Shown: positions 7,186-53,329 of the stretch, piece by piece
How the letters are laid out: every line of letters begins with the position of its first letter
Position numbering within the stretch: the first letter of the stretch is position 1
Origin: a virus
Taxonomy: Duplodnaviria; Caudoviricetes
Virus record (IMG/VR): IMGVR_UViG_3300030330_001640
Location: 3,123 to 67,122 of that record
Length of the DNA stretch: 64,000 bases
Reading direction: 5' to 3' (one strand)
The notes under the pieces: model-generated
Seen by the model: the letters and a program-made list of their open reading frames with translations, nothing else
What the model was told of the DNA's origin: nothing
The model's database searches: none
Made by a program: the position numbers and the translations under genes

Positions 7186-8751
7186 ATGGAATATAATTTA
7201 CCAAGTGAGTTGGTAAAAAACTTAGACTTCGGTGGTGAGGCTAAAGATAGAATTATCACCGGAGTTAATAAGTTAGCCCAAGCCGTTAAATCAACATTAG
7301 GTGCATCAGGAAAATGCGTTATATATGAAGATGGTAGAGGCAAGCCGGTCATTACAAAAGATGGGGTAACCGTTGCAGAGAGCGTAGTCTTATATGACCC
7401 GGTTGAAAATATGGGTGCAACTCTAATTAAAGAAGCTGCCAGAAATACAGTTAAGGATGCTGGTGATGGTACAACAACTGCTACAGTATTAGCTGAAGCA
7501 ATAATCAAACAAGTAGACGCTGCGGTCGCAGAAGGTCTTACAATCAGAGAAATTAAAGATGGAGTAACAGAAACGCTAGATAGTGTCATAAGCTATTTAA
7601 ATAATATAGCTATTGATGTAGAAGGCGACATGCTTAAATCTGTTAGCGCTATATCTTGTAACAACGATCAAGAGCTAGGAGCTATAATAGCCGAAGCTTA
7701 TGATAAGGTTGGTAAAAATGGTGTAGTACTAATGGAAGAAAGCGAATCAGAGGATACATACGTTGATATTGTTGATGGTGTAAAAGTTGATTGTGGATTA
7801 ACGTCACCGCATTTTGTAACTAATACAGAGAAACAAACATGCGAGTTAGACAAGCCATTAGTTTTTATATGCTCATCTGAAATACCTAACGTACGTAAGA
7901 TACAAACGATACTAGAGTATGTTATTAAAAATAACAGAGCTTTATTAATTGTAGCACCAGTAGCACAACAAGTTAAAGCTGCTTTACTTATGAATAAAGT
8001 AAAAGGTACTATTAAAGTTAATATTATTGATTTACCAGGCTTTGGTCCTACTAAAAAAGATGCTACAGAAGATTTAGCTATACTTACAGGCGCAACAGTG
8101 CTTAATGAAGAGTTAGGTGATGATTTAGATCTTATGAAGCCAGAACATTTAGGCGAAGCTGAGTTTTCTGTAACTGATGATAAAAATACTGTACTAACAC
8201 TAGAAGGTATGACTCAAGGCATTGAAGATAGAATAGATGAGTTAAATAAACACTTAGCTGAAGAACAAAACGGTTTTATTAAAAAGAAACTTGAAGACAG
8301 GTTAGCTATGTTATCAGGTAGTGTAGGTATAATAAGAGTAGGTGCTAATTCTAAGGTTGAATTAAAGGAAAAGAAAGACAGGGTTGAAGATGCTATATAT
8401 GCTACTAAAGCTGCGTTACAAGAAGGTATAGTACCAGGTGGTGGTATTGCATTATTAAATGCTAGTCAAAAAATTTCGACCGGACAAGCCGGTAAAGTAC
8501 TACTTAATGCTTTATCTTCTCCATATAAAACTATTGTTGATAATGCTGGTATGGAAGTTAGCACTGGTATGAAAGAAGGTTATGGTTGTAATGTTATAAC
8601 TGGTAAGTATACTAAAATGATTGATGAAGGTATTATTGATCCTGTACTTGTAACTAAGTCTGCACTTAAAAATGCTGTAAGTGTAGCATTAACTATTATG
8701 TCAGCAGATTGTGTAATCTCAAATATCAGAATAGAAAATGCAAGCAGTTAA
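7186..8751 (+). CDS. groEL: phage chaperonin GroEL (Cpn60)
   Basis: ITKDGVTVA, AGDGTTTAT, RVEDA, VPGGG and GIIDP motifs; no GGM tail. Confidence 0.97.
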   Translation: MEYNLPSELVKNLDFGGEAKDRIITGVNKLAQAVKSTLGASGKCVIYEDGRGKPVITKDGVTVAESVVLYDPVENMGATLIKEAARNTVKDAGDGTTTATVLAEAIIKQVDAAVAEGLTIREIKDGVTETLDSVISYLNNIAIDVEGDMLKSVSAISCNNDQELGAIIAEAYDKVGKNGVVLMEESESEDTYVDIVDGVKVDCGLTSPHFVTNTEKQTCELDKPLVFICSSEIPNVRKIQTILEYVIKNNRALLIVAPVAQQVKAALLMNKVKGTIKVNIIDLPGFGPTKKDATEDLAILTGATVLNEELGDDLDLMKPEHLGEAEFSVTDDKNTVLTLEGMTQGIEDRIDELNKHLAEEQNGFIKKKLEDRLAMLSGSVGIIRVGANSKVELKEKKDRVEDAIYATKAALQEGIVPGGGIALLNASQKISTGQAGKVLLNALSSPYKTIVDNAGMEVSTGMKEGYGCNVITGKYTKMIDEGIIDPVLVTKSALKNAVSVALTIMSADCVISNIRIENASS

Positions 8752-8995
8752 CGATTACGTAATAGTAGATATAATAAAAGAAGGACCAAAGAAAGTTGGT
8801 GGCTTCATACTAACAGATGAAACAGATGAAACAAACCGATATAGAAAAGCTAATATTATCTCTGTTGGAAATATGGTGGAAGTGGTTAAAACTGGGGATA
8901 GCATATACTATGATGCTGTTGCTGGTCATGATATTGCTTATAATGATAGTATGTACCGGGTGATACGCGCTAGAGATATAGTTATAGTAGAATAA
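8738..8995 (+). CDS. groES: co-chaperonin GroES (Cpn10)
   Basis: AVNDYVIV start, VGGFIL mobile loop, ISVG, DIV end; overlaps groEL. Confidence 0.88.
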   Translation: MQAVNDYVIVDIIKEGPKKVGGFILTDETDETNRYRKANIISVGNMVEVVKTGDSIYYDAVAGHDIAYNDSMYRVIRARDIVIVE

Positions 8996-12419: not shown

Positions 12420-12633
12420 TATTATAAGAAAAATAACTATAGGTAAAGACTACAAGAATGATTCTATGCACTACGCTGTGGATCAGGAGGTTTACGGAGG
12501 TCATAAGATATGTGACATAATAGAAGAAGAAGATAAGTATTGTATTTACATTAAAAAAGGTGATGTAGTTATACCATGGAAAGACTTTAATAAAAATATG
12601 GCTATATCTGTTGAGTATAACTTAGAGTACTAA
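12409..12633 (+). CDS. hypothetical phage protein (IRKITIGKDYKNDSMHY)
   Basis: ORF track. Confidence 0.75.
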   Translation: MKNNIIRKITIGKDYKNDSMHYAVDQEVYGGHKICDIIEEEDKYCIYIKKGDVVIPWKDFNKNMAISVEYNLEY

Positions 12634-13220
12634 TGAAAGCTTACAAAGATTTTATAGTATCACCTATAGGTGAGAGATATAATAATTCTAAAAAAGTTGG
12701 CGACAAAGAGTTAATACTTAATACTGAAATATTTAATCATCAGTTTATAAATAGATTAGCTTTAGTGCTAGAAACACCTATATTATTTGATACACCAATA
12801 AGCAAGCGTGACCAAGTAATATTACATCACAATGTATTTAGAAGATGGCACGATGTTAAGGGTAGAGAGAAAAATAGCAGATCTTATTGGAAAGAAGACA
12901 AGTATATAATATCTGCAGATCAAATATTTCTTTACAAGAAAAAAGACTGGATGGCTATGCCAGGCTATAGCTTTGTTCAACCTATAATATCAAGTAATAA
13001 TTTAACTATTGAAGAAGAAGAACCTTTAATGGGTATAATTAAATATAGCGATGGTACTTACAACAAAGAAGAATTAGTTGGGTTTACACCTAGTAGTGAA
13101 TATGAGTTTATCATAGAAGGTAAAAGACTATATCGAGTATTAAATAAATTTATTACAATTAAATATGAGTATCAAGGAAACGAAAAAGAATATAATCCAA
13201 GCTGGGCACAAAGCAGTTGA
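12633..13220 (+). CDS. GroES-like-fold protein (two repeats suspected)
   Basis: DFIVSP / FVQP starts of two halves and LILNTE loop resemble a tandem Cpn10-like fold. Confidence 0.45.
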   Translation: MKAYKDFIVSPIGERYNNSKKVGDKELILNTEIFNHQFINRLALVLETPILFDTPISKRDQVILHHNVFRRWHDVKGREKNSRSYWKEDKYIISADQIFLYKKKDWMAMPGYSFVQPIISSNNLTIEEEEPLMGIIKYSDGTYNKEELVGFTPSSEYEFIIEGKRLYRVLNKFITIKYEYQGNEKEYNPSWAQSS

Positions 13221-32372: not shown

Positions 32373-33236
32373 ATGTCAAAAAAAGATAATTCTCCATTTA
32401 ATGTATTAGCAGACGGCTCTAATTATGGTGGTGCGCCACAGTATGGGCCTTTACCACAAGGAACGAATCCTGTTGGAGGCGGGCTTATGAATTTTTTAGA
32501 TCAAGCCGCAACACCTTTAGGTATAGCCACATCTATAGGTTCAAGTATATTTGGTGCTATAAAAGCTAGAAAAGAAGAAAGAAGAGCTAAAAGAAAAATG
32601 AAGAAAGAGCAAAAGAAGATGAAGGAATTAGAAAATATTTATGCAAACATAGATACTAGTAATCCTTATCTTAATATGGAGAATACAATGGAAGACTTAA
32701 CTGTTAATCAACAACAAGCAGATTTTCAAAGACAATCATTTCAACAGACTCAAGCCAATGTAATGGCTAATCTTAGAGGCGCTGCGGGTGGTAGTGGTAT
32801 AGCTGGTTTAGCGCAAGCATTAGCTCAACAGGGGCAAATAGCAGCACAACAACAATCAGCTGATATAGGTAGGCAAGAAGCTCAGAACCAAATGGCTGAA
32901 AGACAAATGGCTGGGCAAATACAAAGCATGGAAAGACAAGGTGAGCTTATTTCAAGAAAGCAACAAACAGAACAAACTGGTACTTTATTAGGTATGGCAC
33001 AACAAAGAACAGCAGCAGCTGCAGGTCAAGTAGCAGCGGCTAAACAAGCTAAGTTCGACGCTATATCAGGTGGTATAATGGGTGCAGCTAAAATGGTACC
33101 TGGATTTGGTGAAGGTTTACAAGGTGGTGGTATATTTGGAGAATCAGGAGCTGGTACGGGTGACGGAACAGATAGTGGTGGATTATTTACTGGTTACAAA
33201 GACGGTAAGTATTATATAGATGGTGTAGCACAATAA
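32373..33236 (+). CDS. internal virion / ejection protein 1
   Basis: Gly/Ala/Gln-rich helical protein with hydrophobic G-rich segments, typical of pilot/ejection proteins. Confidence 0.65.
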   Translation: MSKKDNSPFNVLADGSNYGGAPQYGPLPQGTNPVGGGLMNFLDQAATPLGIATSIGSSIFGAIKARKEERRAKRKMKKEQKKMKELENIYANIDTSNPYLNMENTMEDLTVNQQQADFQRQSFQQTQANVMANLRGAAGGSGIAGLAQALAQQGQIAAQQQSADIGRQEAQNQMAERQMAGQIQSMERQGELISRKQQTEQTGTLLGMAQQRTAAAAGQVAAAKQAKFDAISGGIMGAAKMVPGFGEGLQGGGIFGESGAGTGDGTDSGGLFTGYKDGKYYIDGVAQ

Positions 33237-34635: not shown

Positions 34636-35415
34636 ATGAGCACAGACAAAACTAAAACTCACTATACATTTAAAATTACTAAAGACGGTAAACAATATCA
34701 ACTTAAAGTTAATCCTGAAAAGTTGAATCAGTTTTTTTTAAAATATCCAAACGCTATTCTTGTAAGTAGCCCACAAAACATGGTAGATGAGTTTAACAAA
34801 ACTTCTAGTCCTATTGAAGAAAGAGGTAACAATCCAAACGTGTTTGATCCAGATAATCCTGACGCATCATTGAGTGTATATAGTGATATTAGTGAGTTTA
34901 GCGTAGAAGGAAATGAACCTACCACTATACAAAACGAACCAGAGCCAGCTCCATCCGATATAAGAAAAACTCAATTCCATGATAGTTCGCCTTGTTTTGT
35001 TTCTGGTACTTTGATAGATATGTTTGATGGTTCAACTAAAGAAATACAAGATATAAAAGAAGGTGATTTAGTAAAATCATTTAAAGATGGTGAGTACGTT
35101 TCTGGAAAAGTAACTAAAAAACTAATATACGAAATAAACGATATAATGCCTGTAGCGCTATTAGAAGGTATAACGGGTTCTATTTATCATCCAGTTTTAA
35201 TTAATAATAAATGGATTGAACTTGGTGAGGCACCAATAGAAAAAGAACTAGACAATATGTTCATAGATACATATTACAATTTAGAAATAGATGGTGATAA
35301 TAATAATAGCAATCACAATTATATTATAAACGGACATATAATGTCTGGGCTTGGCGATTGCGAACATTTAAATAATAAATTCAAAAGACAAAATATATAC
35401 AAAGAAATTGTATAA
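34636..35415 (+). CDS. protein with C-terminal Hint (Hedgehog/intein) autoprocessing domain
   Basis: P|CFVSGTLI (Cys1 at 34993), IQDIKEGDLV, GSIYHPV, YYNLEIDG..HNYIING blocks; no terminal HN. Confidence 0.8.
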   Translation: MSTDKTKTHYTFKITKDGKQYQLKVNPEKLNQFFLKYPNAILVSSPQNMVDEFNKTSSPIEERGNNPNVFDPDNPDASLSVYSDISEFSVEGNEPTTIQNEPEPAPSDIRKTQFHDSSPCFVSGTLIDMFDGSTKEIQDIKEGDLVKSFKDGEYVSGKVTKKLIYEINDIMPVALLEGITGSIYHPVLINNKWIELGEAPIEKELDNMFIDTYYNLEIDGDNNNSNHNYIINGHIMSGLGDCEHLNNKFKRQNIYKEIV

Positions 35416-35442: not shown

Positions 35443-38400
35443 ATGGGTAAAATATATAGACTATCTAATGGTGGCCTTGTCACTGTAATGGTAGATGATG
35501 AAACTAATTTTTTTAATATATTAAAGGAAAGAAATTTAACAGCTGAGCTGGTAAATGATCCTAATACAGAATATGATAATGTACCTTCATATAAAGTATC
35601 GCTTTCTTCAAATGATACACAAGAAGATCCTACTGTAGAAGTAGAACAAAAAACAACTTTAAATCAAGAAATATCTACAATCAACAAAGTCGTTGAAATA
35701 ATTCCAAAAGAACAAGTAAAAGATTATGTAATAGGCGAGGGTTTAGATTTTGCTAAATCAACACCTAATGAAATACTAACATATCAAAATGCTAAAGATT
35801 ATTTTAATCAAAGATCTGAAGTAATGTCATACTTTAATTCAGATGATTATAAAGAACTTGACACAATGGACAAAGTTGTAAATAACTCAATGACAAAAAA
35901 TAGTGGTTATTTATCATTAGATATATATGGTCCTGTAAGCACTTGGGATGAAAATGCTACCATGCGTAATAAGGAAGTTAGAGATAAAATATTCGCTGGA
36001 ACACACGGTTATAATCCATATGAAGATAAACTATACAAATTACAAGATCCAGTTGAGGTAGATCTTGGCGCTAAAACGTATGCCTTAAAGCAACAAACAA
36101 GTTATCAAACTTTTAATAGTTTCATGGAAAGTCTTGAGAACCCAAAAAAATATCCAGAATATGTAGATGAAACCGGTAAGGTAATAAGTATGGAGCCATC
36201 AACTAAAACAAGTGATATGTTTCCTGATAGTGGTATATCCGAAGACGCTGGTATGGTTGCTTATAATACACCACCTATTTTAGATGTAAATGCTTTAAGT
36301 AAATACGAAAAAGATTTTGTTGATACTTTTGGTCCAATTTATTATTCTTATGGATTTAATATGGAACAGGCTAAAGGCTTTCATTTAATTAAAAGTTGGG
36401 ATCAACAAGCTGTTAAGGTAACCGCAATGAACGGTAAGTCAATAACTATAGATGTTGATGTTAAGGGTGATACCGCTAAAGAGCAATTAAAAATATTTAT
36501 GGATTTTGTTAACGCAAATACTCATAGTAAAGGTGGTGAGGATATGCTAGGTGAAATGTTTTATGAAGAAACTAAACCTACAGAAGAACAAATACATAAT
36601 ATAGAGACAAATTTTACCGTTGCTAATGAGATAATAGACAAAATGAGAATAGCGTTTAATATGCCTGACGCTACAGATGCTGAAATAATAAATATATACA
36701 ATGATTTTTCTAGATATAGAGAAAATGAAATTGGTGATATTACTAAACATAGCGATGCATATCATAGTGATCTTGATATTAGGTTTGAAGGATCAAACAT
36801 TAACTGGTCTTTAGAGAAAGTTAAATATTTTCAAGATGCCTTGGCTAACGAATTAGGTGAAAACTATACTGATTTTATTAGTGAATATATTGGTGCTTTA
36901 AATCATATAGTAAGTTACGAAAAAGATTTTTATGAAGGTGAAAACGGGGTTATATTAGAAGCGTTTTTACAAGACAGCAAAGCTGTTAGTGAATTTGTTA
37001 AAGGTGAAGGGGTTTACATGAGCGATTTTTACAAAGATAAACCTAAAGAATTTTTTACTAAACACGCTATGGGGCAAACGCTTTGGAAGGAATTACTTGA
37101 ATCAGAGTATTACAAAACTTGGCGTAAAAATTGGATAAAGCAAAATAAAAATAACTACGATCAAACTGTAGATATTAATTCTAAAAAGCTTTATAGATTT
37201 AATGAAACTATAGATATAATACAAAAGAACGCATCTGAGCACGTAGAATTTTTTTCTTCTAATGCTTTCGATAGATCTGAATTACAAGAAGTTGTATACA
37301 AGGACATGGTCTTAGATATAAAAAATGTTGAGAAAGAAATAGCCGAATCACTTGTTGAGATTGATTTTCTAACAGAAACTATGGACGATCTGTATTCAAC
37401 ACAGATAGCTATGGAAGAAGAATTAATATCTATGGGTATTAATCAATATGACGTTTTAGAAGATATAGCTGAAAAATATAACATAACAAGTCAAGAAGAT
37501 TTTTTGTCTAATGAAAATGCAATGGCTGAGTTTAGAGAGTATGAAAAAAAATACTCTGATTTATATAATGAATATGAAATTTTAATAACTCAGACTATAC
37601 CAGCTAATAATAAATTACTTTACGAAAAATACGATGTTATAGACACCAGCGCATGGAAAGCTGAAGAAATGAAATTGATGATGGATGTGTTAGGTAGAAA
37701 CAGCGAGTGGGGAACTTACTATAGTACAATAGGTGGTATAGCTATTATGGAAACTGTAATAGGTGGTACCGCAGCGCTTGTTAGTTCTGTCACAGACGCA
37801 TATCTTGAACTAGGTGAATACCACCCTGCTATGCAAATGGTTCTTGAAGATTTAAATAGTTGGGGTGATAGCTTAGGAACTGAGGTAAAGAAACGAGCAG
37901 AGTATGGTCGTAGTACGCTTGCTTTACCTACTCAATGGGGTGATATAACTGGCGTTTCATCAGCTATGGATTATTTAGTTACAAACACGCTTCAAACGGC
38001 GCCAATACTAATTTTAGCAAGCGCGTCAGGTGGTTATGCTTTACCAGTTATGGGTGTATACTCTGGTAGTCAGAAGTACGATAACATGAGAAGATCTAGA
38101 AATCTTTTTGAAGATACAGCCGGTATGTTTGGGCAAGATTTTACATTAGGTGAAATGTTATTAAACTCTGTTGTTACTGGTACAGCGGAAGGTTTAACTG
38201 AAAAAATAACCTTTGGTCAGTGGAGAAAGTTAGGTTATTTTGCTAATAATCCAGCGGCTAAGTTAGGTTTTGAAAAGGCTCTTCGTAAAAGTATCTATAC
38301 TCCAAAAAAAATGGCTCAATTTGTAGCTTATAATGGTAAACAATTTACTGAAGAAGGTGTCTCTGAGATGATAGCAGATTTTTCTAGTAATACTATGGAT

Positions 38401-41400
38401 GTGTGGACTGGTGTTGAAGGCGCTAATTACTGGGAAGGTATAGATGAGTCTTTCGTAAATGGTTTCTTTTTATCTACATTAATGCACATGCCTGCTATAG
38501 CTAATCAAGCTGTTATACAACCTTTTACTAAATCTGATACAAATCAAAGATTAGGAGAAATAGCTGAAAAATTAGCTGAGCTTAAATCGTACAAAGGTAA
38601 ATCATACGAAGAGTTAACTGATAAAGAAAAAGAAGAAGTTGATAAGCAGGTTGCTGAATTAGGCTTGCAAGCAGAAGAGTTATTAACTAGAGAATTATTT
38701 AAGGTAGATTTACTTACCAATGAACAAAAACAAAGATTACTAGAAATAAATAGATTAGATTTAGAAGCTCGTAAATCATACGAGATAATAATGGCTGATA
38801 GAAGTATAAAATCTGAAGATAAAATAAAAAGATTAACTGAGATAGAACAAGGTATAGAATCAAGAAGAGGTGAAAAGGATAAAATACTAGCTACAGTTAA
38901 TCCAGAAGCTGCTGAGAAAAAGTATAAAGAAAGCATGCAAAACATTAAAGATCAAGCTGATCTTGCTAACGAAATGGGTGGAGTTGAAGTAGAATTATAC
39001 GAACAAACTGATGAGCAATTTCAAGAAGATCAATCTAAAGATGAACAAAATAAATCTGCTGATGAAGTAGCAGATATAACCGCAGAATCAGAGGCTACAA
39101 TCGTTACGTTAACTGAGTCGATTGAAGAATCTGACAAAAATATAAAAGAATCTAAAGATAAAATTACTGAGACAAGAAAAGAAATAAAAGATATAAAGAA
39201 CGATAAGAAAAAAAATGACAATCAGAAGCTGAAAGAAATTGATAAAAAGAAAAAAGAGATTGACAAGGAAAAGAAAAAAATAATAAACGAAAGTAAGAAT
39301 AAAAAAGATGCTGAAAATTTAATAAGAGATAAAGGCGTACTACAAACAAACGTAAAAGTTGGGGCAAGTATTTTAAAAGATAATCCTTATGGTAGAATGA
39401 GACCTATATACGATAAAAACGGTAATCTTACTAAACTTAAACTATATGTCAATAAAGATAAGTCTATTGCTGATGGCATGTGGACTACAGGTGCTCATGA
39501 AATGATCCACGCTGTTTTTGCTAATACTATAAAATCAGATCCAGCCATGAGATTAAAACTTGGTGGAGCAATGGCCAAGATACTTAAAGGTAAAAATATA
39601 GAATTTAAAACAATGTCTGCTGCTGATATGTTTAATAAAAGGGTGGCTCAGTATAGTATCGATAAACAAGGTGAAGAAGCTTTAGCTATAGCTTCTGAAA
39701 TGTTAATAAAAGGAGATATAATACTAAAAGAAAGTACGTTAGGTAAGTTAGGTAGTATATTTAGAAGATGGTCTATGGATAGATATGGTACGACTTTTAA
39801 TTTTAATAACTCAAATGATATATTAAATTTTATAAAAGACTATCATTATTCTATTAAAAATAATAAACCAAGTAAAGCTATAGCAAAAATGTTAGCTAAA
39901 GGAGCTAATGGTAAAATGTTTGAAGGCGCTAAAACACCGCAAGATAGATCTAATTTAGACATGCATAGCGCTGTAGTTGGTAAATCTATAGAATCAGATC
40001 CTGATTTAAGACCGTTTTTTGATGATGTGGTTAAAGATAAAGGTGGGAAAGTTAAACATAGAAATCATGAAGATTTTAAAGCTTCCCCAGAATATATAGA
40101 AGGTTATGAAAAAATAGTTGATACTAATAAATTAAATGGTATAATACAAGCAGGCATGACAGAAAGAGGTTTACCTCCAGATGCGTTAAAAGATTTTACT
40201 AGAAAAGTTAAAGAAGAATTAGGTATAAGATACTTAAAAAATTATAATGTAGACAAAAACGACAGTTTATTCGGTTGGTTAACAGGTGTAGCAGGTGGAC
40301 AAGGCCAATCAATAATATATAGAGCGAAAGGCGATGTGATGAATGAGTACAAAAAACAAGTACCTAAGACATCTATAGATAAACCTATAAGTGAGTCTGG
40401 CACAGTAGCTGACGTAATACAAGCGGAAAAAGATGTGTTAATAGATAAAATTGAAAACGCAGACATGTCACCTGAATTATTACAAGAGTCTGTTCAAGAT
40501 GTTAATGACTTAATAATGGTAATGGATATGCTTGGTTTTTCAAATAATGTTAAGCAAGCTGTAAAAGATATTGTTAAAAGATCTAATATTAATTTGGATA
40601 ACTTAACTTATAAAGGTGTAAGAGATTTATTACTATCTGTTCAAAGTAAAGCTACTACTGAAAAAAATGTTGTACCTACAGGACCTTTGTTTGAAATATT
40701 AAATGCTATATCAGCTGAGTTTGGAGTTGATCCCCTTAGAATATTAGCTAAACAAGATTTAAATGCTGAACAAAGAAAAGCAGCACAAGAATATATATAT
40801 AATAAATCTACCAACGATGATGGTTCTTTTAATACAAGTTTGCTAGATATATTACCTGAAGGCCAAGACAGAGATGGTAGAGCCACTGGTGTTGCTAATA
40901 CTAAATTAGGGGAGTTCTATACTAAAGGCGATAGACTTAAGGTAAGGGAAGGCGCTAAAAAAGGTTTAGGCCAAAAGTTCGCTCAAAATAAAAGAACTAA
41001 CGTAACTAGAGAGCAGTTATTAGGTTTGTTTGGTATAAATACTGATGGTACTTTTCAACCTGGTACTAAAGCAGATGGAGCTATTAGAGAGCTAATAGTT
41101 CAAGTATCTCAATTAGCAGCTAATCAAGAAATAAGATTAGATGCTGTAGAAAATAGAGTAGAAGCAGCTAGTAATATAGCTAGATTAAAAGATGGCACTT
41201 CTTTAACTATGTACTCAAACCCTCCTAAAATTAATACTAAACAAAAAGTCGAGTTGGCAAAACAACTTTTCGATAAAAATTCAAATGTTTATGCTGAAAA
41301 TATACCAACAATACGTATTCAAACATTAACGCACATTTTAAAGTATGGTGATGATATAAAAAAGCTACAAGAGAAAAGACAGAGAATTATATATTACGAC

Positions 41401-44400
41401 GCTCCATCACCACTTAACCCGGATATAACAATGGGTGAACAGTTGAAACTTGATGTAGATGACTTCTTAAAACAGTATCCACAATATTACGATCAATTAA
41501 GAAATACAATGACTGGTGGAATAGGGATAAGTACTTTCTTTTCTGTAGAAAACTTTGAAAAAATGTTTCCTAGAGAAAAGTATGAACTTGGCGGATTATT
41601 TGCACAACAATCGCTTCCAAGAAATAGTTATACTTTTAAAAGCGATACAAAAACTGGTAAAAAAAGAAGATTTAATCCAAAGACTTTAAATAAAAAAGAT
41701 GACTCTAAACAAAGGTTAGATATACTTTACAACTTTGCTAAAGCAATGGAGGGTTACGTAAAAACAAATAAAAATCCTAAACCAGGGAATATTTACTTAT
41801 TCTCATTAATGGCATCTGATACTGTTAATAATCAGAATGGTGCTATAACTAGAATATTATCTCCATTTAGTTTTTATACTATAATGAAAAATGGTCAGCC
41901 AGATACAACTAATATAATGACAGAAGAGCACGCTGGTCCACAAAAGAGTATAATGGATATGTTAGTTAACGCAGCTAGAGTAGGTAAAGTTGATACAGTT
42001 TGGCCTATAGTTGAAGCTGTATTTGCACAAGGAACTTTATTAGATGTAATTGATAAAAGATTAAAAGACGTTAAAAATAGAGATGGTAAAAATCTTCAAG
42101 AAAATTTACCAGATATATTTTGGGATAGCATAGCAGAAAGAGTACTTGATGGTAAACTAGATGATCTACCACAAGGCTCTATAGCTATGGTTAGATATTT
42201 TGTGGCTGGTAAAGAGTTAAATATAGACATAATAAATACCATAAAATGGAAAAACGGTAAAACACTAGCCGAAATATTTGGGGTTAAAGTAGATGGTGAG
42301 ATATCACCAACTATATTTCAAGCTCAATATGACTTAGTATTAGATTATTTATCAGGTAATATAACTAAAGAAAAATTAGCTGAAGCTGTTAATAAGTTAA
42401 ACATAGAAGGTATAAACTATGTTGATGCTGTTAAAGAAGCACGCGATGTTAAAACAGGAGTACTTACATTGAATAACAATATGTACGATAGCTATAGTAA
42501 ACCTGTTAAAGTTAGAGGTATGTCTACATTTGATTTTGATGACACGTTAGCTAGAACTAAATCAGGTGTTAGGTACACAATGCCAAATAATACTGGTGAG
42601 CCAGCGCCTGGCAGAAAAGTTATATTCTTAGCTGGTAGTGCTGGTAGCGGTAAATCAAATGTTGTTAAGCAGTTAGGTTTACAAGAAAAAGGTTTTAAAA
42701 TAGTAAACCAAGATATAGCTTTAGAGTGGTTAACTAAAAATAGTGGACTACCTACAGATATGAGAGACTTTACACCTGAGCAAGCTAGTAAATGGGGAGA
42801 ATTACAATGGGAGGCTAGAGATATAGCACAACGTAAAGCTATTAAATTTAGAGGTAGAGGAGATGGTGTTGTGGTAGATGGCACAGGGGCAAGTACTGTT
42901 TCTTTATTTACACAAGCTCAAAAATATAAAGACGCGGGATATGATGTTAAAATGTTGTTTGTAGAAAGTTCTTTAGATACAGCTTTAGCTAGAAATAAAG
43001 CTAGAAAAGAAAGATCGTTAAAAGATTTTATAGTTGAACGTAACTGGAAAGCTGTACAAAAAAATAAAAAAGCTTTTAAAGAAGAGTTTGGTAATAATTT
43101 TACAGAAGTAAATACTGATAACTTAAAACAAGGTGATGCTATGCCTAACAACGTTGTCGTAGCTATAGATAACTTTACTAGTGGTTACATAAAAGGTAGA
43201 TTAACAGCAGAAGAATTTGCTAGCAAGGGTGGAGATTTATTAGATCAAGGCGCTTCATTTGATTTTTCTGAATTTAATAAAGTTGTAGATGGCACGCCAG
43301 GTCCTTTACTTGATAAAGCTAGAAACAGAGCTAAGAAGTTTGGTACAAAAGATATGTTTGTTTTAACGGCTAGACCTCAACAATCTGCTTTTGCTATACA
43401 ACAGTTTTTAAAAGGACAAGGTTTAGATATACCAATAGAAAACATAACTGGTTTAGCTAATAGTTCTGGTAATGCTAAAGCACAGTGGATGTTAGATAAG
43501 TTTGCTGAAGGATATAACGACATGTACTTTGTAGACGATGCTCTACAAAATGTTGAAGCTGTAAAAGCCGTACTAGATCAATTAGATATTAAATCTAAAG
43601 TAGTTCAAGCTAAATTAAAAGATCAAGGTAAGTTAGTAGAACCAGGTAATAATACTATGTATAGCAAAGTAGTTAATCCTGATAACATTAATATAGATAA
43701 AGAGTTTAATAATATTCTTGAGGTTAAAAAAGGTGTTGATGCTAATAAAAGGTTTTCATCTGCAGAAGCTAGAAAAAGAGGGGCTAAATTTAGATTAAGA
43801 CTTTACATACCACCATCAGCAGAAGACTTTAAAGGTTTATTATATTATTTCTTACCTAAAGGTAAAGAAGGTGAAAAGGCTTTAAAGTTTTTCGAAAAAA
43901 CATTATTAAAACCTTTTGCAAGAGGTATTAGAGCTTGGAACTCGTACAAACAAAATATGGTTAACGAGTATAACGATTTAAGAAAAAAATTTCCAGATGT
44001 AACTAAAGTTTTAAATGATAGAGTACCTGGAACTAGTTTTACAAATGATACCGCTATAAGAGTTTATTTGTGGACAAAAGCAGGATTTGATATTCCAGGT
44101 ATATCAAAAGCATTACAAAAAAGATTAGTAACTCACGTTAATGGAAACCCTAATTTAAAAGCGTTTGCTGATGGCTTATCAAAAGTTACTCGTAGAAAAG
44201 ATGGTTATCTTCCGCCAAATAAAAATTGGATGATGGAAGCTATACCCACTGATTTAAGAAATCTTGTAGACAAAGTAGGTAGAAAAGAGTTTTTACAAGA
44301 GTGGATTAATAATAAAGAAGAAATATTTTCTCAAGAAAATATTAATAAAATAGAAGCCTTGTATGGCTCAGACTTTAAATCAGCTTTATTAGATATACTA

Positions 44401-46011
44401 TTCCGTATGGAAAATGGTGGTAATAGAAAGCAAGGAAAAAGTAAATTAGTTAATAATCTTACTGATTGGATAAACGGGTCTATAGGTGCTATTATGTTCT
44501 TTAATATGAGATCTGCTTTATTACAAACACTATCAACTGTTAACTTTATAAACTGGAGTGATAACAATATGTTCAAAGCAGCAGCAGCATTTGCTAATCA
44601 AAAACAGTTTTGGCAAGACTTTGTAATGTTATTTAATTCACCAATGTTAAAACAAAGAAGAAAAGGTTTGCAAACAGATGTATCAGCAGCAGAATTAACA
44701 AAGTCATTTAAAGAAAGAGGGTATAGTCCAACTACAGTTATTAGTTATTTATTACAAAAAGGTTTTTTACCTACGCAAATAGCAGATAGTTTTGCTATTG
44801 CTTTTGGTGGCGCTAGTTTTTATAGAAATAGATATAACAAATATATTAAACAAGGTATGTCTGCTAAAGAAGCTCATGATAAAACTATGTTAGAGTTTCA
44901 AGAGATAGCTGAAGAAACTCAACAGTCATCAAGAGAAGATTTAGTATCACCACAACAAGCTGGACCATTAGGTAGGTTAATATTGGCTTTTCAAAATGTT
45001 ACAATGCAGTATGGTAGGTTGACTAAGAAAGCCTTGTCTGATACTGTTAATGGTAGAGGTGATATGAAAACTAATGTGTCAAAGTTAATATACTATGGTA
45101 TGGTGCAGAATGTAATATTCGCTGCACTACAGTCTGCTTTAGCATTTATAATGTGGGGCGACGATGAGGAAGAGATAAAAGATCAAACAACTAGAACAGC
45201 TAATAGTGTATTAGATTCTTTCTTACGTGGTACTGGAATATATGGAGCTATAGTTTCTACAATTAAAAATACTATAATACAATGGGATTTACAAAGCAAT
45301 AAAGATTATGGTAAAGCTAGACCCGAAAAAATACTATTAGAAATAGTTAATATATCCCCGCCAATAGGTAGTAAGCTTAGAAAAGTAATGAACGCTTATT
45401 ATGCTGAAGAATTTAATAGAGGTTTATCAGATGAGTTGGGATTAAGATTAGAAAATCCAACAATAAAAAAGTGGGCTAGTCTTGTAGAAGCTGCTACTAA
45501 TATACCTTTAGCTAGATTACTTAATAAAGCTAATAACTTAGAAGAAGCGATAACTGGTAATCATGAACTGTGGAAAAGAATAGCTATGTTTGCTGGTTGG
45601 AGTATGTGGAATATAGGCGTTGAAGATGAAGAAGTAGTAGCTGCTAAAGAAAGTCTAGCTGAGAAAAAAGAAATTGAAAAAGAAAAAGAAAAGGAAGAAA
45701 AGAAAATAGAGAAAGAAAAAGAAAAAGAAGAAAAGAAAAAAGCAGAAGAAGAAGAGAAGAAAAGAAAAGGTATTAAAACTGTAAGATGTTCTGGTATAAG
45801 ATCTAATGGTGAAAGATGTAAGTTAACAACTGAAACAGCTGAAAAGAAATATCTGTGCCCACATCACATGGAATTTACAGATGGTATGGACAGAGATGGC
45901 GATGGTATTAAAGAATATAGATGTACTTTTATTAAGAAAAACGGAGAACAGTGTAAGATGAAAGGTGAGTACGGAAAAGAAAAAAGATGTTATCATCATG
46001 TAGACAAGTAA
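35443..46011 (+). CDS. giant (3522 aa) multidomain ejection protein with metallopeptidase, HAD phosphatase, P-loop kinase and C-terminal zinc fingers
   Basis: HEMIH at 39496; DFDDT at 42532; GSAGSGKS at 42634; LTAR and FVDD HAD motifs; two C-x9-C..C-x2-H repeats. Confidence 0.75.
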   Translation: MGKIYRLSNGGLVTVMVDDETNFFNILKERNLTAELVNDPNTEYDNVPSYKVSLSSNDTQEDPTVEVEQKTTLNQEISTINKVVEIIPKEQVKDYVIGEGLDFAKSTPNEILTYQNAKDYFNQRSEVMSYFNSDDYKELDTMDKVVNNSMTKNSGYLSLDIYGPVSTWDENATMRNKEVRDKIFAGTHGYNPYEDKLYKLQDPVEVDLGAKTYALKQQTSYQTFNSFMESLENPKKYPEYVDETGKVISMEPSTKTSDMFPDSGISEDAGMVAYNTPPILDVNALSKYEKDFVDTFGPIYYSYGFNMEQAKGFHLIKSWDQQAVKVTAMNGKSITIDVDVKGDTAKEQLKIFMDFVNANTHSKGGEDMLGEMFYEETKPTEEQIHNIETNFTVANEIIDKMRIAFNMPDATDAEIINIYNDFSRYRENEIGDITKHSDAYHSDLDIRFEGSNINWSLEKVKYFQDALANELGENYTDFISEYIGALNHIVSYEKDFYEGENGVILEAFLQDSKAVSEFVKGEGVYMSDFYKDKPKEFFTKHAMGQTLWKELLESEYYKTWRKNWIKQNKNNYDQTVDINSKKLYRFNETIDIIQKNASEHVEFFSSNAFDRSELQEVVYKDMVLDIKNVEKEIAESLVEIDFLTETMDDLYSTQIAMEEELISMGINQYDVLEDIAEKYNITSQEDFLSNENAMAEFREYEKKYSDLYNEYEILITQTIPANNKLLYEKYDVIDTSAWKAEEMKLMMDVLGRNSEWGTYYSTIGGIAIMETVIGGTAALVSSVTDAYLELGEYHPAMQMVLEDLNSWGDSLGTEVKKRAEYGRSTLALPTQWGDITGVSSAMDYLVTNTLQTAPILILASASGGYALPVMGVYSGSQKYDNMRRSRNLFEDTAGMFGQDFTLGEMLLNSVVTGTAEGLTEKITFGQWRKLGYFANNPAAKLGFEKALRKSIYTPKKMAQFVAYNGKQFTEEGVSEMIADFSSNTMDVWTGVEGANYWEGIDESFVNGFFLSTLMHMPAIANQAVIQPFTKSDTNQRLGEIAEKLAELKSYKGKSYEELTDKEKEEVDKQVAELGLQAEELLTRELFKVDLLTNEQKQRLLEINRLDLEARKSYEIIMADRSIKSEDKIKRLTEIEQGIESRRGEKDKILATVNPEAAEKKYKESMQNIKDQADLANEMGGVEVELYEQTDEQFQEDQSKDEQNKSADEVADITAESEATIVTLTESIEESDKNIKESKDKITETRKEIKDIKNDKKKNDNQKLKEIDKKKKEIDKEKKKIINESKNKKDAENLIRDKGVLQTNVKVGASILKDNPYGRMRPIYDKNGNLTKLKLYVNKDKSIADGMWTTGAHEMIHAVFANTIKSDPAMRLKLGGAMAKILKGKNIEFKTMSAADMFNKRVAQYSIDKQGEEALAIASEMLIKGDIILKESTLGKLGSIFRRWSMDRYGTTFNFNNSNDILNFIKDYHYSIKNNKPSKAIAKMLAKGANGKMFEGAKTPQDRSNLDMHSAVVGKSIESDPDLRPFFDDVVKDKGGKVKHRNHEDFKASPEYIEGYEKIVDTNKLNGIIQAGMTERGLPPDALKDFTRKVKEELGIRYLKNYNVDKNDSLFGWLTGVAGGQGQSIIYRAKGDVMNEYKKQVPKTSIDKPISESGTVADVIQAEKDVLIDKIENADMSPELLQESVQDVNDLIMVMDMLGFSNNVKQAVKDIVKRSNINLDNLTYKGVRDLLLSVQSKATTEKNVVPTGPLFEILNAISAEFGVDPLRILAKQDLNAEQRKAAQEYIYNKSTNDDGSFNTSLLDILPEGQDRDGRATGVANTKLGEFYTKGDRLKVREGAKKGLGQKFAQNKRTNVTREQLLGLFGINTDGTFQPGTKADGAIRELIVQVSQLAANQEIRLDAVENRVEAASNIARLKDGTSLTMYSNPPKINTKQKVELAKQLFDKNSNVYAENIPTIRIQTLTHILKYGDDIKKLQEKRQRIIYYDAPSPLNPDITMGEQLKLDVDDFLKQYPQYYDQLRNTMTGGIGISTFFSVENFEKMFPREKYELGGLFAQQSLPRNSYTFKSDTKTGKKRRFNPKTLNKKDDSKQRLDILYNFAKAMEGYVKTNKNPKPGNIYLFSLMASDTVNNQNGAITRILSPFSFYTIMKNGQPDTTNIMTEEHAGPQKSIMDMLVNAARVGKVDTVWPIVEAVFAQGTLLDVIDKRLKDVKNRDGKNLQENLPDIFWDSIAERVLDGKLDDLPQGSIAMVRYFVAGKELNIDIINTIKWKNGKTLAEIFGVKVDGEISPTIFQAQYDLVLDYLSGNITKEKLAEAVNKLNIEGINYVDAVKEARDVKTGVLTLNNNMYDSYSKPVKVRGMSTFDFDDTLARTKSGVRYTMPNNTGEPAPGRKVIFLAGSAGSGKSNVVKQLGLQEKGFKIVNQDIALEWLTKNSGLPTDMRDFTPEQASKWGELQWEARDIAQRKAIKFRGRGDGVVVDGTGASTVSLFTQAQKYKDAGYDVKMLFVESSLDTALARNKARKERSLKDFIVERNWKAVQKNKKAFKEEFGNNFTEVNTDNLKQGDAMPNNVVVAIDNFTSGYIKGRLTAEEFASKGGDLLDQGASFDFSEFNKVVDGTPGPLLDKARNRAKKFGTKDMFVLTARPQQSAFAIQQFLKGQGLDIPIENITGLANSSGNAKAQWMLDKFAEGYNDMYFVDDALQNVEAVKAVLDQLDIKSKVVQAKLKDQGKLVEPGNNTMYSKVVNPDNINIDKEFNNILEVKKGVDANKRFSSAEARKRGAKFRLRLYIPPSAEDFKGLLYYFLPKGKEGEKALKFFEKTLLKPFARGIRAWNSYKQNMVNEYNDLRKKFPDVTKVLNDRVPGTSFTNDTAIRVYLWTKAGFDIPGISKALQKRLVTHVNGNPNLKAFADGLSKVTRRKDGYLPPNKNWMMEAIPTDLRNLVDKVGRKEFLQEWINNKEEIFSQENINKIEALYGSDFKSALLDILFRMENGGNRKQGKSKLVNNLTDWINGSIGAIMFFNMRSALLQTLSTVNFINWSDNNMFKAAAAFANQKQFWQDFVMLFNSPMLKQRRKGLQTDVSAAELTKSFKERGYSPTTVISYLLQKGFLPTQIADSFAIAFGGASFYRNRYNKYIKQGMSAKEAHDKTMLEFQEIAEETQQSSREDLVSPQQAGPLGRLILAFQNVTMQYGRLTKKALSDTVNGRGDMKTNVSKLIYYGMVQNVIFAALQSALAFIMWGDDEEEIKDQTTRTANSVLDSFLRGTGIYGAIVSTIKNTIIQWDLQSNKDYGKARPEKILLEIVNISPPIGSKLRKVMNAYYAEEFNRGLSDELGLRLENPTIKKWASLVEAATNIPLARLLNKANNLEEAITGNHELWKRIAMFAGWSMWNIGVEDEEVVAAKESLAEKKEIEKEKEKEEKKIEKEKEKEEKKKAEEEEKKRKGIKTVRCSGIRSNGERCKLTTETAEKKYLCPHHMEFTDGMDRDGDGIKEYRCTFIKKNGEQCKMKGEYGKEKRCYHHVDK

Positions 46012-50005: not shown

Positions 50006-50287
50006 ATGGCGTTTAAAAGAAAACCTTTCTCTGGTTTTGGTAATAAAATAAAAACCGCAAGAGCGAAAAGATTAACAAGGAAATTTGTTGGATCAACTAC
50101 TGTTGATGGTCCTGATACCTATAATATTTCTGAAAAAAAATATCTTAAAGCAGAAAAAAAAATGATGAAAGCTGATAAGCTTTTAAAAAAAGCTGGGTAT
50201 GGGCTTGAGTATAGAGAAGGAGCTTTAGGCGCTGAGGGTTATCAAACAGCTATGGATTGGGCTAGTAAAAATAAAAAAAGAAAATAA
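50006..50287 (+). CDS. basic MAFK-leader protein
   Basis: MAFKRKPFSGFG start. Confidence 0.7.
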   Translation: MAFKRKPFSGFGNKIKTARAKRLTRKFVGSTTVDGPDTYNISEKKYLKAEKKMMKADKLLKKAGYGLEYREGALGAEGYQTAMDWASKNKKRK

Positions 50288-50631
50288 TGGCTAAAGAATT
50301 ATCAGAAGAAAGTAAATTTCAAATTAGCGTTAAGACATTAATAACTATTGTTGTTGGTGTTGCTACTATTATATCAGCTTACTTTGGTTTAATGGCTAGT
50401 ATAAATTCTAAGTTTGCAGAACTAGAAGATAAAGTAGAAAAAGCCTTAGAGCTACCCAAACCAGGGACAGGTACTTATACTATAGATATGGGTGATCCAG
50501 CTGCTAGTAATACATGGCCGCCAACACGTATGGAGTTTAACATGAAAGATCAAATGGCCCGTAACCAAATTGATGCATTAGTAAAGGAGATAGATGAGAT
50601 GAAAGAAGAGATAAAACTATTAAGAAAATGA
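50287..50631 (+). CDS. single-TM coiled-coil membrane protein (spanin-like topology)
   Basis: TM LITIVVGVATIISAYFGL followed by coiled coil. Confidence 0.55.
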   Translation: MAKELSEESKFQISVKTLITIVVGVATIISAYFGLMASINSKFAELEDKVEKALELPKPGTGTYTIDMGDPAASNTWPPTRMEFNMKDQMARNQIDALVKEIDEMKEEIKLLRK

Positions 50632-51029
50632 TTAGAAGAATAGATATATCTAACTATTTGTATTTACTAATAATGTTGTTCATGTTTTTATGTGGTACAG
50701 CATTTGGTCAAGACTTTGTTACAGCTGATAATTTTAAAAACAAAATAGCTAAAGACGTTGTTGTCGTTGAATTTTGGGCTGACTGGAATAAGATGAATCA
50801 GTTTAATGAATTAAATAAATTAAAAGGATGTAATGTATATCGAATCGATATCATGTCATATATGGACATCCAGATGAATTATAATGTCACGGCTATACCT
50901 ACTGTTATTATATTTGATAATGGTATAGAAAAAGAAAGGTTTAATGCTAATGTAATGTTCAAGCTTGACGCCGACAGAAAAACAGTGCAGCACTCAGTTG
51001 ATACTATAACACTTAACAAATTTCAATAA
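50628..51029 (+). CDS. secreted thioredoxin-fold protein lacking CxxC
   Basis: signal peptide ending AFG|Q; VVVEFWADWN, YNVTAIPTVIIFDNG (cis-Pro motif). Confidence 0.75.
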   Translation: MIRRIDISNYLYLLIMLFMFLCGTAFGQDFVTADNFKNKIAKDVVVVEFWADWNKMNQFNELNKLKGCNVYRIDIMSYMDIQMNYNVTAIPTVIIFDNGIEKERFNANVMFKLDADRKTVQHSVDTITLNKFQ

Positions 51030-51031
51030 TT

Positions 51032-51367
51032 ATGGCTTACGTACAAAAAAATAATCCTATACCTATTACCGGCTGTGGTAGACGTAGATCAGAACAAATG
51101 AATAATCCATTTAAAAAGGTAGACATAAAGGCTTTAAAAAAGGTTTCTAAAGAATTAAAGAAAGCTAGTAAAACACACGCTGGTCAAGCAGAAAAAATAG
51201 CTTCTGCATTAACAATGAAAAGCCCTATGAACAAAGGTATAAGTGGGCCTTGCAAAGCTGCTGCTAAAAAGAAATTTAAAGTATGGCCTAGTGCTTATGC
51301 TTCAGGTTGGGGCGTAAGATGTACTAAAGCTGGTGGACCTGGTAGTATGGGTAAAAGTAAAAAGTAA
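51032..51367 (+). CDS. basic modular protein with WPSAYASG module
   Basis: MAYVQKNNP leader; NPFK and SPMN linkers; KFKVWPSAYASGWGVRC. Confidence 0.7.
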   Translation: MAYVQKNNPIPITGCGRRRSEQMNNPFKKVDIKALKKVSKELKKASKTHAGQAEKIASALTMKSPMNKGISGPCKAAAKKKFKVWPSAYASGWGVRCTKAGGPGSMGKSKK

Positions 51368-51909
51368 TGGCTAAAAAAACTTCTAAGTCTATTACATGGC
51401 ACGACTCAGACGCTCCTGACGCTAAAGGTAAATTTAGAGATTTATCAGCATCAGCGTTAGCTTCATGGTTAATTAAAACTAGAGATGGTAATCTTAAAAA
51501 AATTATAGGTAGTTTAAATCAACAATACGTTTTCAACAGGGGTAAAAAACCTGCTTATGCTCGTAAGATGAAAACGGTTATGAATATAGTTAGAAAAAGA
51601 TTAGGTAAAAAAGAGGACTCACCATTAAAAAGGAAAGACCCTTTAGTTGGTACTGGTAAAAAACCTAAAGGTAGTGGTAGAAGATTATATACTGATGAAA
51701 ACCCTAAAGATACAGTAGGTATTAAGTTTGCAACAGTAGCTGATGCTAGAAAAACAATTGCTAAGGTTATGAATATAAATAAACCTTATGCTAGAAAAGT
51801 ACAGATATTAACTGTACTAGAGCAGAGAGCTAAGGTAATGGGTAAAATGGAACAAGCTAGATTAGCTAAATCAGCTAAAGCTACATTAAAAAAACAAAAT
51901 AATGCTTAA
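51367..51909 (+). CDS. basic two-module protein (GTGKKPKGSGRRLYTDENP)
   Basis: two modules separated by EDSPLKRK. Confidence 0.7.
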   Translation: MAKKTSKSITWHDSDAPDAKGKFRDLSASALASWLIKTRDGNLKKIIGSLNQQYVFNRGKKPAYARKMKTVMNIVRKRLGKKEDSPLKRKDPLVGTGKKPKGSGRRLYTDENPKDTVGIKFATVADARKTIAKVMNINKPYARKVQILTVLEQRAKVMGKMEQARLAKSAKATLKKQNNA

Positions 51910-52423
51910 AGATTTTAATATAGATAAATTTAAAAAAAATAAACCTCCATCTGATAATTCATTTGACACGATGCAAGAGATTAAGCAGTTGCAAAAAATT
52001 AATATGGATAAAAGTTTTGTTAAAAAATTTGATGATGGCAAAAAAGTTTTTACTAATGTAGTTGGTAAAGATCCATTAATAAGTAAATTAATAGATCAGT
52101 CGACTCCTCATATAATGAGTTTAAAAAAATATTTTAATAGACCTAGACCAGCTGTATTAGCTCGTAAATTAAAATTAAAACTACATGATATAAAACTAAA
52201 GTCTATGGATACACCGGCTTACCCTTCTGGTCATGCTACTCAGGCTACATTATTACAATTAGCTTTATCTGATAAGTATCCTAATAAAAAAAAAGAACTT
52301 AAAGCCCTTGCAGAAAACATAATTAAAAGTAGACATTTGGCTCATACTCATTATAAGTCAGATAGTGATATGGGTAGAAAATTAGGCGAAGCAATGTATC
52401 AACATATAAAAAATAAATTATAA
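51902..52423 (+). CDS. PAP2-superfamily phosphatase / haloperoxidase-like, soluble
   Basis: all three motifs: K-x6-RP (KKYFNRPRP), PSGH, SR-x5-H-x3-D (SRHLAHTHYKSD). Confidence 0.85.
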   Translation: MLKDFNIDKFKKNKPPSDNSFDTMQEIKQLQKINMDKSFVKKFDDGKKVFTNVVGKDPLISKLIDQSTPHIMSLKKYFNRPRPAVLARKLKLKLHDIKLKSMDTPAYPSGHATQATLLQLALSDKYPNKKKELKALAENIIKSRHLAHTHYKSDSDMGRKLGEAMYQHIKNKL

Positions 52424-52797
52424 TGGCGTTTAAAATGAAAGGATTTTCTGGATTTGTAGATGACTCACCAATGAATTGTTGGAAGGGTTATGAGCGCGTA
52501 CCTGGTACAGCTAAAGGCTCAAAAGGTAGTTGTCGTAAACCATCGCCAATTAAAAAACAAAAAGGTGGTGGTACAACTAAAACCTGTTTACCAGCTGCTA
52601 AAATACGTAGCTTAAGTAAAGAAAAAAGACAACAATTAGTTAGCTCTAAACGATCAGCTGGAGCTCAAGGTAAATATAAAAGATCATCTAAAACAAATGT
52701 TAAAGGCGCTCGTAAAAAAGGAGCAACATTGAGAGACTGGTTTGAAAAAGAAGACTGGAGAAGAGTAGATGATCCATCTAAAAAATGTGGAGAATAG
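52423..52797 (+). CDS. basic MAFKMKG-leader modular protein (CWKGY module plus DUF5872-like module)
   Basis: MAFKMKGFSGF; SPMN then CWKGYERV; SPIK then KTCLP..LRDWFEKEDW. Confidence 0.7.
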   Translation: MAFKMKGFSGFVDDSPMNCWKGYERVPGTAKGSKGSCRKPSPIKKQKGGGTTKTCLPAAKIRSLSKEKRQQLVSSKRSAGAQGKYKRSSKTNVKGARKKGATLRDWFEKEDWRRVDDPSKKCGE

Positions 52798-52798
52798 T

Positions 52799-53113
52799 AT
52801 GGCGTTTAAAATGAAGGGCTGGAGCCCATATACAAAAGCAGATCCAAGGCGTACCATAGGCCCTGGTAAAAATTTTAATAAAGCAAACCCAACGGGCACG
52901 GGTGCTGCTGCTGGTGGAGGTATGACTCAAAAAGGTGTTGATGAATATAAACGTAATAATCCAGGAAGTAAATTGCAGACCGCTGTCACCACACCGCCTT
53001 CACAATTAAAAGCAGGTAGTAGAAAGGCTAAACGTAGAAAAGCGTTTTGTGCTAGGTCAAGAAGCTGGAAAAGTGAAAGAGGTAAAGCAGCTAGAAGAAG
53101 ATGGAACTGTTAA
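52799..53113 (+). CDS. basic MAFKMKG-leader protein with DUF6321-like module
   Basis: start re-assigned to 52799 (MAFKMKGWSPY); GGMTQKGV..NPGSKL..RRKAFCAR..RWNC. Confidence 0.75.
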   Translation: MAFKMKGWSPYTKADPRRTIGPGKNFNKANPTGTGAAAGGGMTQKGVDEYKRNNPGSKLQTAVTTPPSQLKAGSRKAKRRKAFCARSRSWKSERGKAARRRWNC

Positions 53114-53146: not shown

Positions 53147-53329
53147 TTAAGAATTGTTTTTCATTTCTTGAACTTCAACCCTAATATTCTGGGCTAAGCT
53201 CTTTACATTTTGCATGTGTTTCCTAACTCTAGTACCAGCTGCTTTATTACCAGCACTAAACTTATCTGCTTCATGCATTGCTATACTTACTTCATCTTTC
53301 ATTGTTTCCATTAAGTTTCCTAAATTCAT
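53147..53329 (-). CDS. histone H1-like protein (Hc1 family)
   Basis: KF..GNKAAGTRVRK.MQ..K..AQ..R.EV pattern of Bacteroidota Hc1-like proteins. Confidence 0.8.
   Translation of the reverse strand: MNLGNLMETMKDEVSIAMHEADKFSAGNKAAGTRVRKHMQNVKSLAQNIRVEVQEMKNNS

Follow-up and report, generated by a model that had tools for sequence, protein, structure and literature searches.

An undescribed, clade-wide peptide tag ahead of shuffled small basic modules in marine flavobacterial phages, with a plausible role in polyprotein processing

The 64,000-nucleotide stretch of viral DNA analysed here (Duplodnaviria; Caudoviricetes), which we call the window and to which all positions refer, is part of the 67,122-bp IMG/VR record IMGVR_UViG_3300030330_001640, rated complete. 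Its long plus-strand late operon ends, behind envelope and lysis-type genes, in a cluster of five open reading frames, four of which encode small proteins built of mini-modules, with 20–30% Lys+Arg, and the fifth a PAP2-family phosphatase (Table 1; proteins are named by the first nucleotide of their genes). In this work, we describe a tag of three to four residues, Ser/Thr/Asn-Pro-hydrophobic(-Lys/Asn), that stands ahead of almost every one of these shuffled small basic modules, follow it through related viruses and weigh what it may do. The tag is real, clade-wide and undescribed, and it may plausibly serve in polyprotein processing.

The architecture repeats from gene to gene. The 52423 protein begins with a leader (MAFKMKG), passes through a first tag (SPMN), a CWKGY mini-module and a second tag (SPIK), and ends in a highly conserved C-module starting KQKGGG. 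The 51032 protein runs from the leader MAYVQK through an NPI tag, a small CGRRR element, an NPFK tag, a helix module and an SPMN tag to a WPSAYASG module; SPLK joins the two modules of the 51367 protein, and a MAFKMKG leader and SPYT precede the DUF6321 module of the 52799 protein, whose orthologue in a related viral locus (L003; such loci carry our L numbers) has NPFK at the same place. An earlier reading of the window from its letters alone (the sequence-only reading) had proposed that these motifs form a phage processing code. Our motif scan recovered every motif that it listed in these four proteins, and SPFN in the 32373 protein of the tail/ejection gene block, where it had placed them, and the NPI of the 51032 protein in addition. 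Its ‘DUF6321-like’ label for the 52799 protein was right, the Pfam match lying well above the cut-off, but ‘DUF5872-like’ was misplaced: a Pfam scan gave no DUF5872 match on the 52423 protein, and the one on residues 66–101 of the 51032 protein, in the WPSAYASG module (PF19197, 16.2 bits, E 0.017), is below the gathering threshold of 27.5 bits. The PAP2 gene had gone unmentioned; its signature motifs (KX6RP, PSGH and SRX5HX3D) are all readable in the translation, which has no membrane helices. In relatives, the N terminus of this phosphatase (M-F-K-G-F) is leader-like.

The tag occurs far more often than composition predicts. The strict form SP-hydrophobic-[KN] is found four times in the four small proteins against 0.09 in composition-preserving shuffles (none of 5,000 reached four), and only nine times in the whole window proteome (roughly 20,600 residues); the looser pattern of the sequence-only reading is found six times against 0.18. 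Across the small basic proteins of 80 related loci and the window, SP-hydrophobic was counted 255 times compared to 31 ± 6 after shuffling, uncorrected for relatedness. Among 204 distinct contexts, the third residue is L in 93, F in 48, M in 21, V in 20, I in 13 and Y in 9, and the flanks are weakly basic in a logo whose S-P is fixed by the search pattern. The fourth residue, proposed to be Lys or Asn, is one of these in 102 contexts and another residue in the other half. The first residue is encoded by TCN, AGY or ACN and Pro by every CCN; such varied codons place selection on the peptide and not on a DNA site, which rules out a DNA-level recombination site.

To place the tag relative to modules, we gathered 80 viral loci each with the 52423 protein, with an HExxH protein described below and with the 32373 protein, and searched 160 related loci with eight sequence anchors, one per unrelated module, in which the motif was not included. 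At about 150 of 190 distinct junctions, [S/T/N]-P-hydrophobic lies no more than 10 residues upstream of the module, and the untagged junctions are mostly degenerate copies (A-P-L, G-P-M, S-A-L) or proteins that begin at the module itself. Across hundreds of homologues, the motif falls at leader–module and module–module junctions, as had been proposed. The part upstream of the 52423 C-module varies by locus (the leader alone, the CWKGY module, a helix module, a Cys/His-rich module or an in-frame PAP2 domain), and whatever it is, the module that follows has the tag right in front of it. In four loci (L004, L006, L007 and L017), the PAP2 reading frame runs on through the tag into that of the next protein; PAP2–CWKGY fusions have a tag only at the joint and no leader. 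The window has two separate genes instead, with a leader inserted ahead of the tag. Fission and fusion fall exactly at the tag.

The same modules also occur singly. The 52423 C-module is found alone or behind three other N-modules, and the pelagiphage HTVC033P carries several modules as separate 42–96-aa (amino acid) genes without the tag, including gp40, whose DNA is 77% identical to that of the second module of the 51367 protein. The first module of the latter stands alone in L029, the helix and WPSAYASG modules of the 51032 protein are separate genes of 39 and 47 aa in L038, modules of the latter protein also stand alone in L009, and standalone module genes occur in L132 too. In the cyanomyoviruses S-N03 and P-TIM68, DUF6321 ends proteins of 428–500 aa with other linkers and no such tag, which, with the single-module genes of pelagiphages, bears out the statement of the sequence-only reading that other marine phages use these modules with different linkers. 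These two cyanophage proteins (L083:169-1671 and L084:439-1722) are multi-domain and encoded immediately upstream of the large terminase. Judged by such comparisons, the modules are autonomous units shuffled as cassettes, the mix-and-match arrangement that had been suggested.

The 52423 family alone has more than 1,500 homologous clusters (90%-identity clusters, 73–93% identity) in marine metagenomes. Its C-module, roughly 80 aa and basic, comes from viral contigs of 28–96 kb, and its conservation is unusually strong among small proteins of phages. Two of its Cys are invariant, with two further ones in the CWKGY module ahead of it. In an AlphaFold2 (AF2) model, the predicted local distance difference test (pLDDT) score is below 50 for residues 1–16, about 54 in the second linker and up to 85 in the C-module, so that model confidence is low at the leader and tag regions, as expected of linkers. 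A fold search with this model found no solved relative (best Z 2.4), and a BFVD search matched only uncharacterized viral proteins and DUF6321 proteins.

Leader and tag are distributed differently: the leader (MAFKMKG, MAYxQ or MGFKLGSE type) comes once per separately translated protein, the tag once per module. Seven window proteins begin M-[AG]-[FY]-K/V-... ahead of unrelated bodies, a pattern that recurs in relatives. The sequence-only reading had seen related motifs in the 5124, 6182 and 32373 proteins, which holds for SPFN in the last, whereas the first two have only Pro-less S-A-M or S-S-M variants. Related MKRM repeats lie upstream of the DSSMKRMK units of the 6182 protein, and comparable Ser-Ala-Met/Lys-rich arrays adjoin the HExxH gene in L132 and L096. 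In the 32373 family, 14 of 71 distinct N termini carry an M..SP-hydrophobic-K extension, and the others begin directly at a hydrophobic segment.

Between two leader-protein genes lies that of the 5756 protein, itself with a leader (MGFKLGSE), an HExxH motif and a TPLD motif at the edge of its predicted fold. H71, E72, H75 and E122 are invariant in 30 sequences, and in the AF2 model (pLDDT 73) a disordered leader is followed by a small sheet, the helix with HExxH and, at the C terminus, another helix. The latter bears E122, a candidate for the third metal ligand, which in gluzincins is a Glu on a downstream helix. In Foldseek, selecase, abylysin and jannalysin lead (probability 0.98, E 0.2, 52 columns, root-mean-square deviation (rmsd) 1.6); VIA-align gives mostly zincins, with PprI/IrrE at Z 6.1 (rmsd 3.9, 87 aligned), SPRTN at 5.5 and selecase at 5.1, and CapP and VgrG2b among the others. 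Among PDB sequences searched by profile, selecase again ranks first, with a weak E of 0.23, a language-model atlas points to SprT-like and M78 clusters, and the L029 homologue has a weak match to the metallo-protease family phrog_87 (E 0.012). The protein itself has no Pfam match and matched PHROG families of unknown function. From these models and searches, it is probably a minimal zincin.

Of 50 tag-bearing viral records, 33 have the HExxH gene, among them all 18 that are at least 90% complete. In L132 and L159 the gene immediately follows tagged module genes; in the window, 43 kb lie between the two. We did not find the protein in ten other phages checked, four with untagged modules and six, isolates or references, whose portal is related; in three of these six, scans over 42–50 kb showed no leader protein and hardly any tags in basic proteins. 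This co-occurrence is a correlation within related phages. Pfam and PHROG scans of the late genes of the window gave no classical serine prohead protease (gp21/U9 or HK97-type), and the open reading frame between portal and capsid protein had no match in them.

Table 1 Coordinates of module genes, tags, leader proteins and neighbouring genes in the window.
Feature	Position (nt)	Strand	Basis
210-aa leader protein (MAFKMKF), only an S-A-M variant, no S-P-hydrophobic	5124–5756	+	motif scan
135-aa HExxH protein, candidate processing metallopeptidase	5756–6163	+	HEMQH at 5966–5980
TPLD motif of the 5756 protein	5861–5872		
317-aa leader protein (MAFKMKGW), tandem DSSMKRMK array	6182–7135	+	motif scan
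Phage GroEL with an adjacent GroES-like open reading frame	7186–8995		PHROG E 2e-134
Second GroES-like protein	12633–13220		
287-aa non-basic protein, tail/ejection gene block	32373–33236	+	motif scan
SPFN of the 32373 protein, residues 7–10	32391–32402		motif scan
Vint-type Hint autoprocessing domain	34636–35415		Pfam PF14623, E 7.5e-9
3,522-aa giant protein	35443–46011		
HEMIH motif of the giant protein	39496		
93-aa basic leader protein (MAFKRKPFSGFG), no tag	50006–50287	+	motif scan
Thioredoxin-fold protein with signal peptide	50628–51029		Pfam E 1.7e-8
111-aa basic protein	51032–51367	+	translation, motif scan
NPI tag of the 51032 protein, residues 8–10	51053–51061		
NPFK tag of the 51032 protein, residues 25–28	51104–51115		
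SPMN tag of the 51032 protein, residues 64–67	51221–51232		
180-aa basic protein, two modules joined by a tag	51367–51909	+	translation, motif scan
SPLK tag of the 51367 protein, residues 85–88	51619–51630	+	
Soluble PAP2-family phosphatase, 173 aa	51902–52423	+	Pfam PF01569, 33.3 bits vs cut-off 27.2
124-aa basic protein	52423–52797	+	translation, homologues, AF2 model
SPMN tag of the 52423 protein, residues 15–18	52465–52476	+	
SPIK tag of the 52423 protein, residues 41–44	52543–52554	+	
C-module of the 52423 protein	52543–52797		
104-aa protein with leader, tag and DUF6321 module	52799–53113	+	Pfam PF19846, 41.3 vs 28.5 bits
SPYT tag of the 52799 protein, residues 9–12	52823–52834	+	
60-aa Hc1 histone H1-like protein	53147–53329	-	Pfam PF07432, E 2e-19

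By its genes, the phage belongs among the podovirus-like phages of marine Flavobacteriia, because it has a terminase, a P22-like portal and Cellulophaga-type ‘virion structural proteins’. Its closest deposited relatives, at 39–52% portal identity, are Maribacter phage Panino, Manatee Spring podovirus, Flavobacterium elemo phages and Cellulophaga phi38:1. The Hc1 gene lies directly 3′ of the basic-protein cluster on the opposite strand, and upstream of the cluster is a thioredoxin-fold protein in whose translation no CxxC was seen. Farther away, the GroEL gene adjoins a GroES-like open reading frame and a second GroES-like gene lies upstream of the terminase, the Hint domain sits in the ejection-protein block (a hedgehog/intein-domain protein occurs also in Cellulophaga phi38:1), and the giant protein has an AAA_33/zeta-toxin-like kinase domain at residues 2392–2539 and a second HExxH motif with no family match.

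What could such a tag do? By analogy with the capsid-targeting propeptides of phage T4, we tentatively read it as an address and processing label, an interpretation that we hold with somewhat less than even confidence. The tag would be a module-independent recognition element in flexible sequence just ahead of each mini-module in a set of late proteins that are small and basic. Late in infection, leader and tag would guide these proteins to a processing enzyme or to the particle under assembly. The putative minimal zincin of the phage, which has a leader of the same class, would make its cut in the tag or next to it, so that the leader is lost and concatenated modules come free as the single units for which other phages have separate genes. 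In its most specific form, this would mean that an abundant clade of uncultured marine flavobacterial phages makes mini-polyproteins and leader-bearing cargo that are cut at their tags by a packaged zincin of about 130 aa, a scenario that we regard as rather improbable in full.

Several observations weigh against processing. The CWKGY and KQKGGG modules remain together in most relatives, tags also occur in tandem, only a few residues apart, and standalone proteins keep a tag with only one to three residues ahead of it (M-x-SP-hydrophobic), where a pure separator would not be needed. At an orthologous site Pro is replaced by Ala, the 6182 protein having S-A-M-D-K where L003 has S-P-M-D-K. The scores of the candidate enzyme are weak (Foldseek E 0.2, VIA-align Z 5–6, no Pfam match), zincin-type proteins also serve in other roles such as anti-defence or regulation, and shared ancestry of one phage clade alone may account for its co-occurrence with the tag. 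We found no cultured phage with the tag system: tblastn searches of cultured and deposited phages with the 52423, 51032 and HExxH proteins returned none, although the low-complexity filter may hide basic proteins. Cleavage and a place in the virion, like recognition of the tag and the choice of protease, are inferences. A predicted complex of the HExxH and 52423 proteins scored 0.00, with no controls, and counts neither way.

Nearly as likely as an address and processing label, if unlikely in itself, is an uncleaved docking motif, by which the tag of each module would bind a common partner (capsid interior, scaffold, portal or chaperone) and a multi-module protein would be a string of beads, each cassette with its own tag. 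Docking explains the retention of tags almost at the N terminus better than processing does; tandem tags and the Met/Lys-rich repeat arrays point to avidity rather than cutting, the Pro to Ala change is tolerated, and in the extended members of the 32373 family the tag stands at the head of a protein that is not basic and belongs to the ejection block. Yet the common partner is hypothetical, and a single address per polypeptide would suffice for docking, whereas here there is a separate N-terminal leader and, besides it, a tag for each module. In pelagiphages, moreover, these modules work as free single proteins, and a conserved zincin with the same kind of leader co-occurs.

Motifs of the SPKK/SPXX type, which bind the minor groove, are known from histone H1 and from sperm H2B tails, and Suzuki is said to have set the precedent for SPKK as a DNA-binding motif in 1989. 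That the tag is such a β-turn aiding minor-groove binding, in proteins that condense the phage DNA, would suit their Lys and Arg content, the neighbouring Hc1 gene and the S/T-P start, but the third position is almost always L/F/M/V/I/Y and not basic, and there is one copy at the N-terminal edge of each module in place of arrays in tails. The tag also precedes the enzyme in PAP2 fusions, the HExxH domain and the hydrophobic segment of the 32373 family, none of which is a DNA-binding tail, and we consider this explanation improbable. We give equally little credence to a passive linker or evolutionary scar, that is, to cassettes having spread with a short flexible N-terminal stretch that has no recognition role. 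Modules do move as cassettes, and the tags do lie in low-confidence, probably flexible stretches; the same three residues nevertheless precede eight unrelated modules despite varied codons and flanks, and a neutral linker would drift; the cyanophage and pelagiphage versions of the modules do without the tag.

Least probable is cleavage at the tag by another enzyme, either a host protease, as Pro-containing sites suit prolyl-specific enzymes and Bacteroidota have many prolyl peptidases, or the HEMIH region of the giant protein, since that region has no peptidase family match, known host prolyl peptidases are mostly periplasmic and the module proteins have no signal peptide, and the phyletic pattern of the small zincin fits better. 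Four further candidates were rejected: a helix N-cap (what follows the tag is Gly-rich or starts Cys-Trp and is not predicted to be helical, and the tag is common to eight unrelated modules), the Bacteroidota O-glycosylation motif D-S/T-[AILMTV] (Pro is disallowed at its third position, and a signal peptide is absent), a type IV prepilin-like leader, basic and ending Gly-Phe (no hydrophobic helix follows the leader), and a link to the phage GroEL/GroES (both are also encoded by isolates that have neither leaders nor tags).

The module proteins are very common in ocean metagenomes, and any rule that organizes them therefore concerns a large unannotated share of the marine virome. To the sequence-only reading, the present analysis adds junction statistics, selection at the protein level, fission and fusion, and data on the predicted fold, co-occurrence and adjacency of the candidate zincin. 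Should the tag be a processing or address code, mature products and cargo proteins would be predictable from sequence, a metalloprotease-based maturation system would be added to phage biology and a short portable tag would become available for loading proteins into capsids; with cutting by a packaged zincin, this would be a head- or cargo-maturation system whose peptide code is unrelated to any known phage prohead protease system. Even as a docking motif only, the tag would be a new class of short linear motif in phages.

In our literature searches, neither the tag nor the modules nor the small zincin proved to have been described, and there was nothing relevant on DUF5872, DUF6321 or minigluzincins in phages and no phage example of concatenated mini-domain polyproteins. 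The nearest counterpart is T4, whose internal proteins share a 10-residue capsid-targeting propeptide that is removed by the prohead protease, itself proposed to carry a related targeting element (PMC9026906). As in that system (IPI–III and Alt, with gp21), a short N-terminal peptide is found here on unrelated small, basic, polymorphic late proteins, and the leader ends at a short, here putative, recognition motif. Unlike in T4, this motif is S-P-hydrophobic and not L/I-x-E, further copies of the tag lie between modules within proteins, and the candidate enzyme is a probable zincin of about 130 aa and not a serine (U9/S80-type) prohead protease. The window phage is also of the P22-like-portal podovirus type, which, judged by P22, is not known to need a head protease. 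In giant phages (SPN3US gp245, phiKZ gp175), many head proteins are cut at a three-residue motif and propeptides sometimes at several sites (PMC10052503). Motif, enzyme class and genome size all differ from those of the window, and the units between motifs are here autonomous mini-domains, whereas giant-phage propeptides are disposable.

The S/T-P start in Lys-rich proteins is shared with SPKK/SPXX motifs, in which, however, S/T-P is followed by two mostly basic residues and repeated in terminal tails, whereas the tag is hydrophobic at position 3 and single. The 5756 protein resembles the minigluzincins selecase, abylysin and jannalysin in its size (about 110–135 aa), in an HExxH on a long helix after a small β-sheet and in a conserved Glu-bearing helix downstream; it differs in an extra β-rich insert between the helices and in belonging to a viral family with no Pfam cover, and the scores of the comparison are non-significant (E 0.2–0.3). 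Finally, adenovirus pVII and pre-mu, African swine fever virus pp220 and pp62, and poxvirus precursors (AG|X), which are basic and DNA-associated or made of concatenated units, are cut at minimal motifs by virus-coded cysteine proteases. Those viruses infect eukaryotes and use a different class of enzyme, but in them, as in the window, basic or concatenated units are joined by a short conserved junction motif and the units are autonomous proteins.

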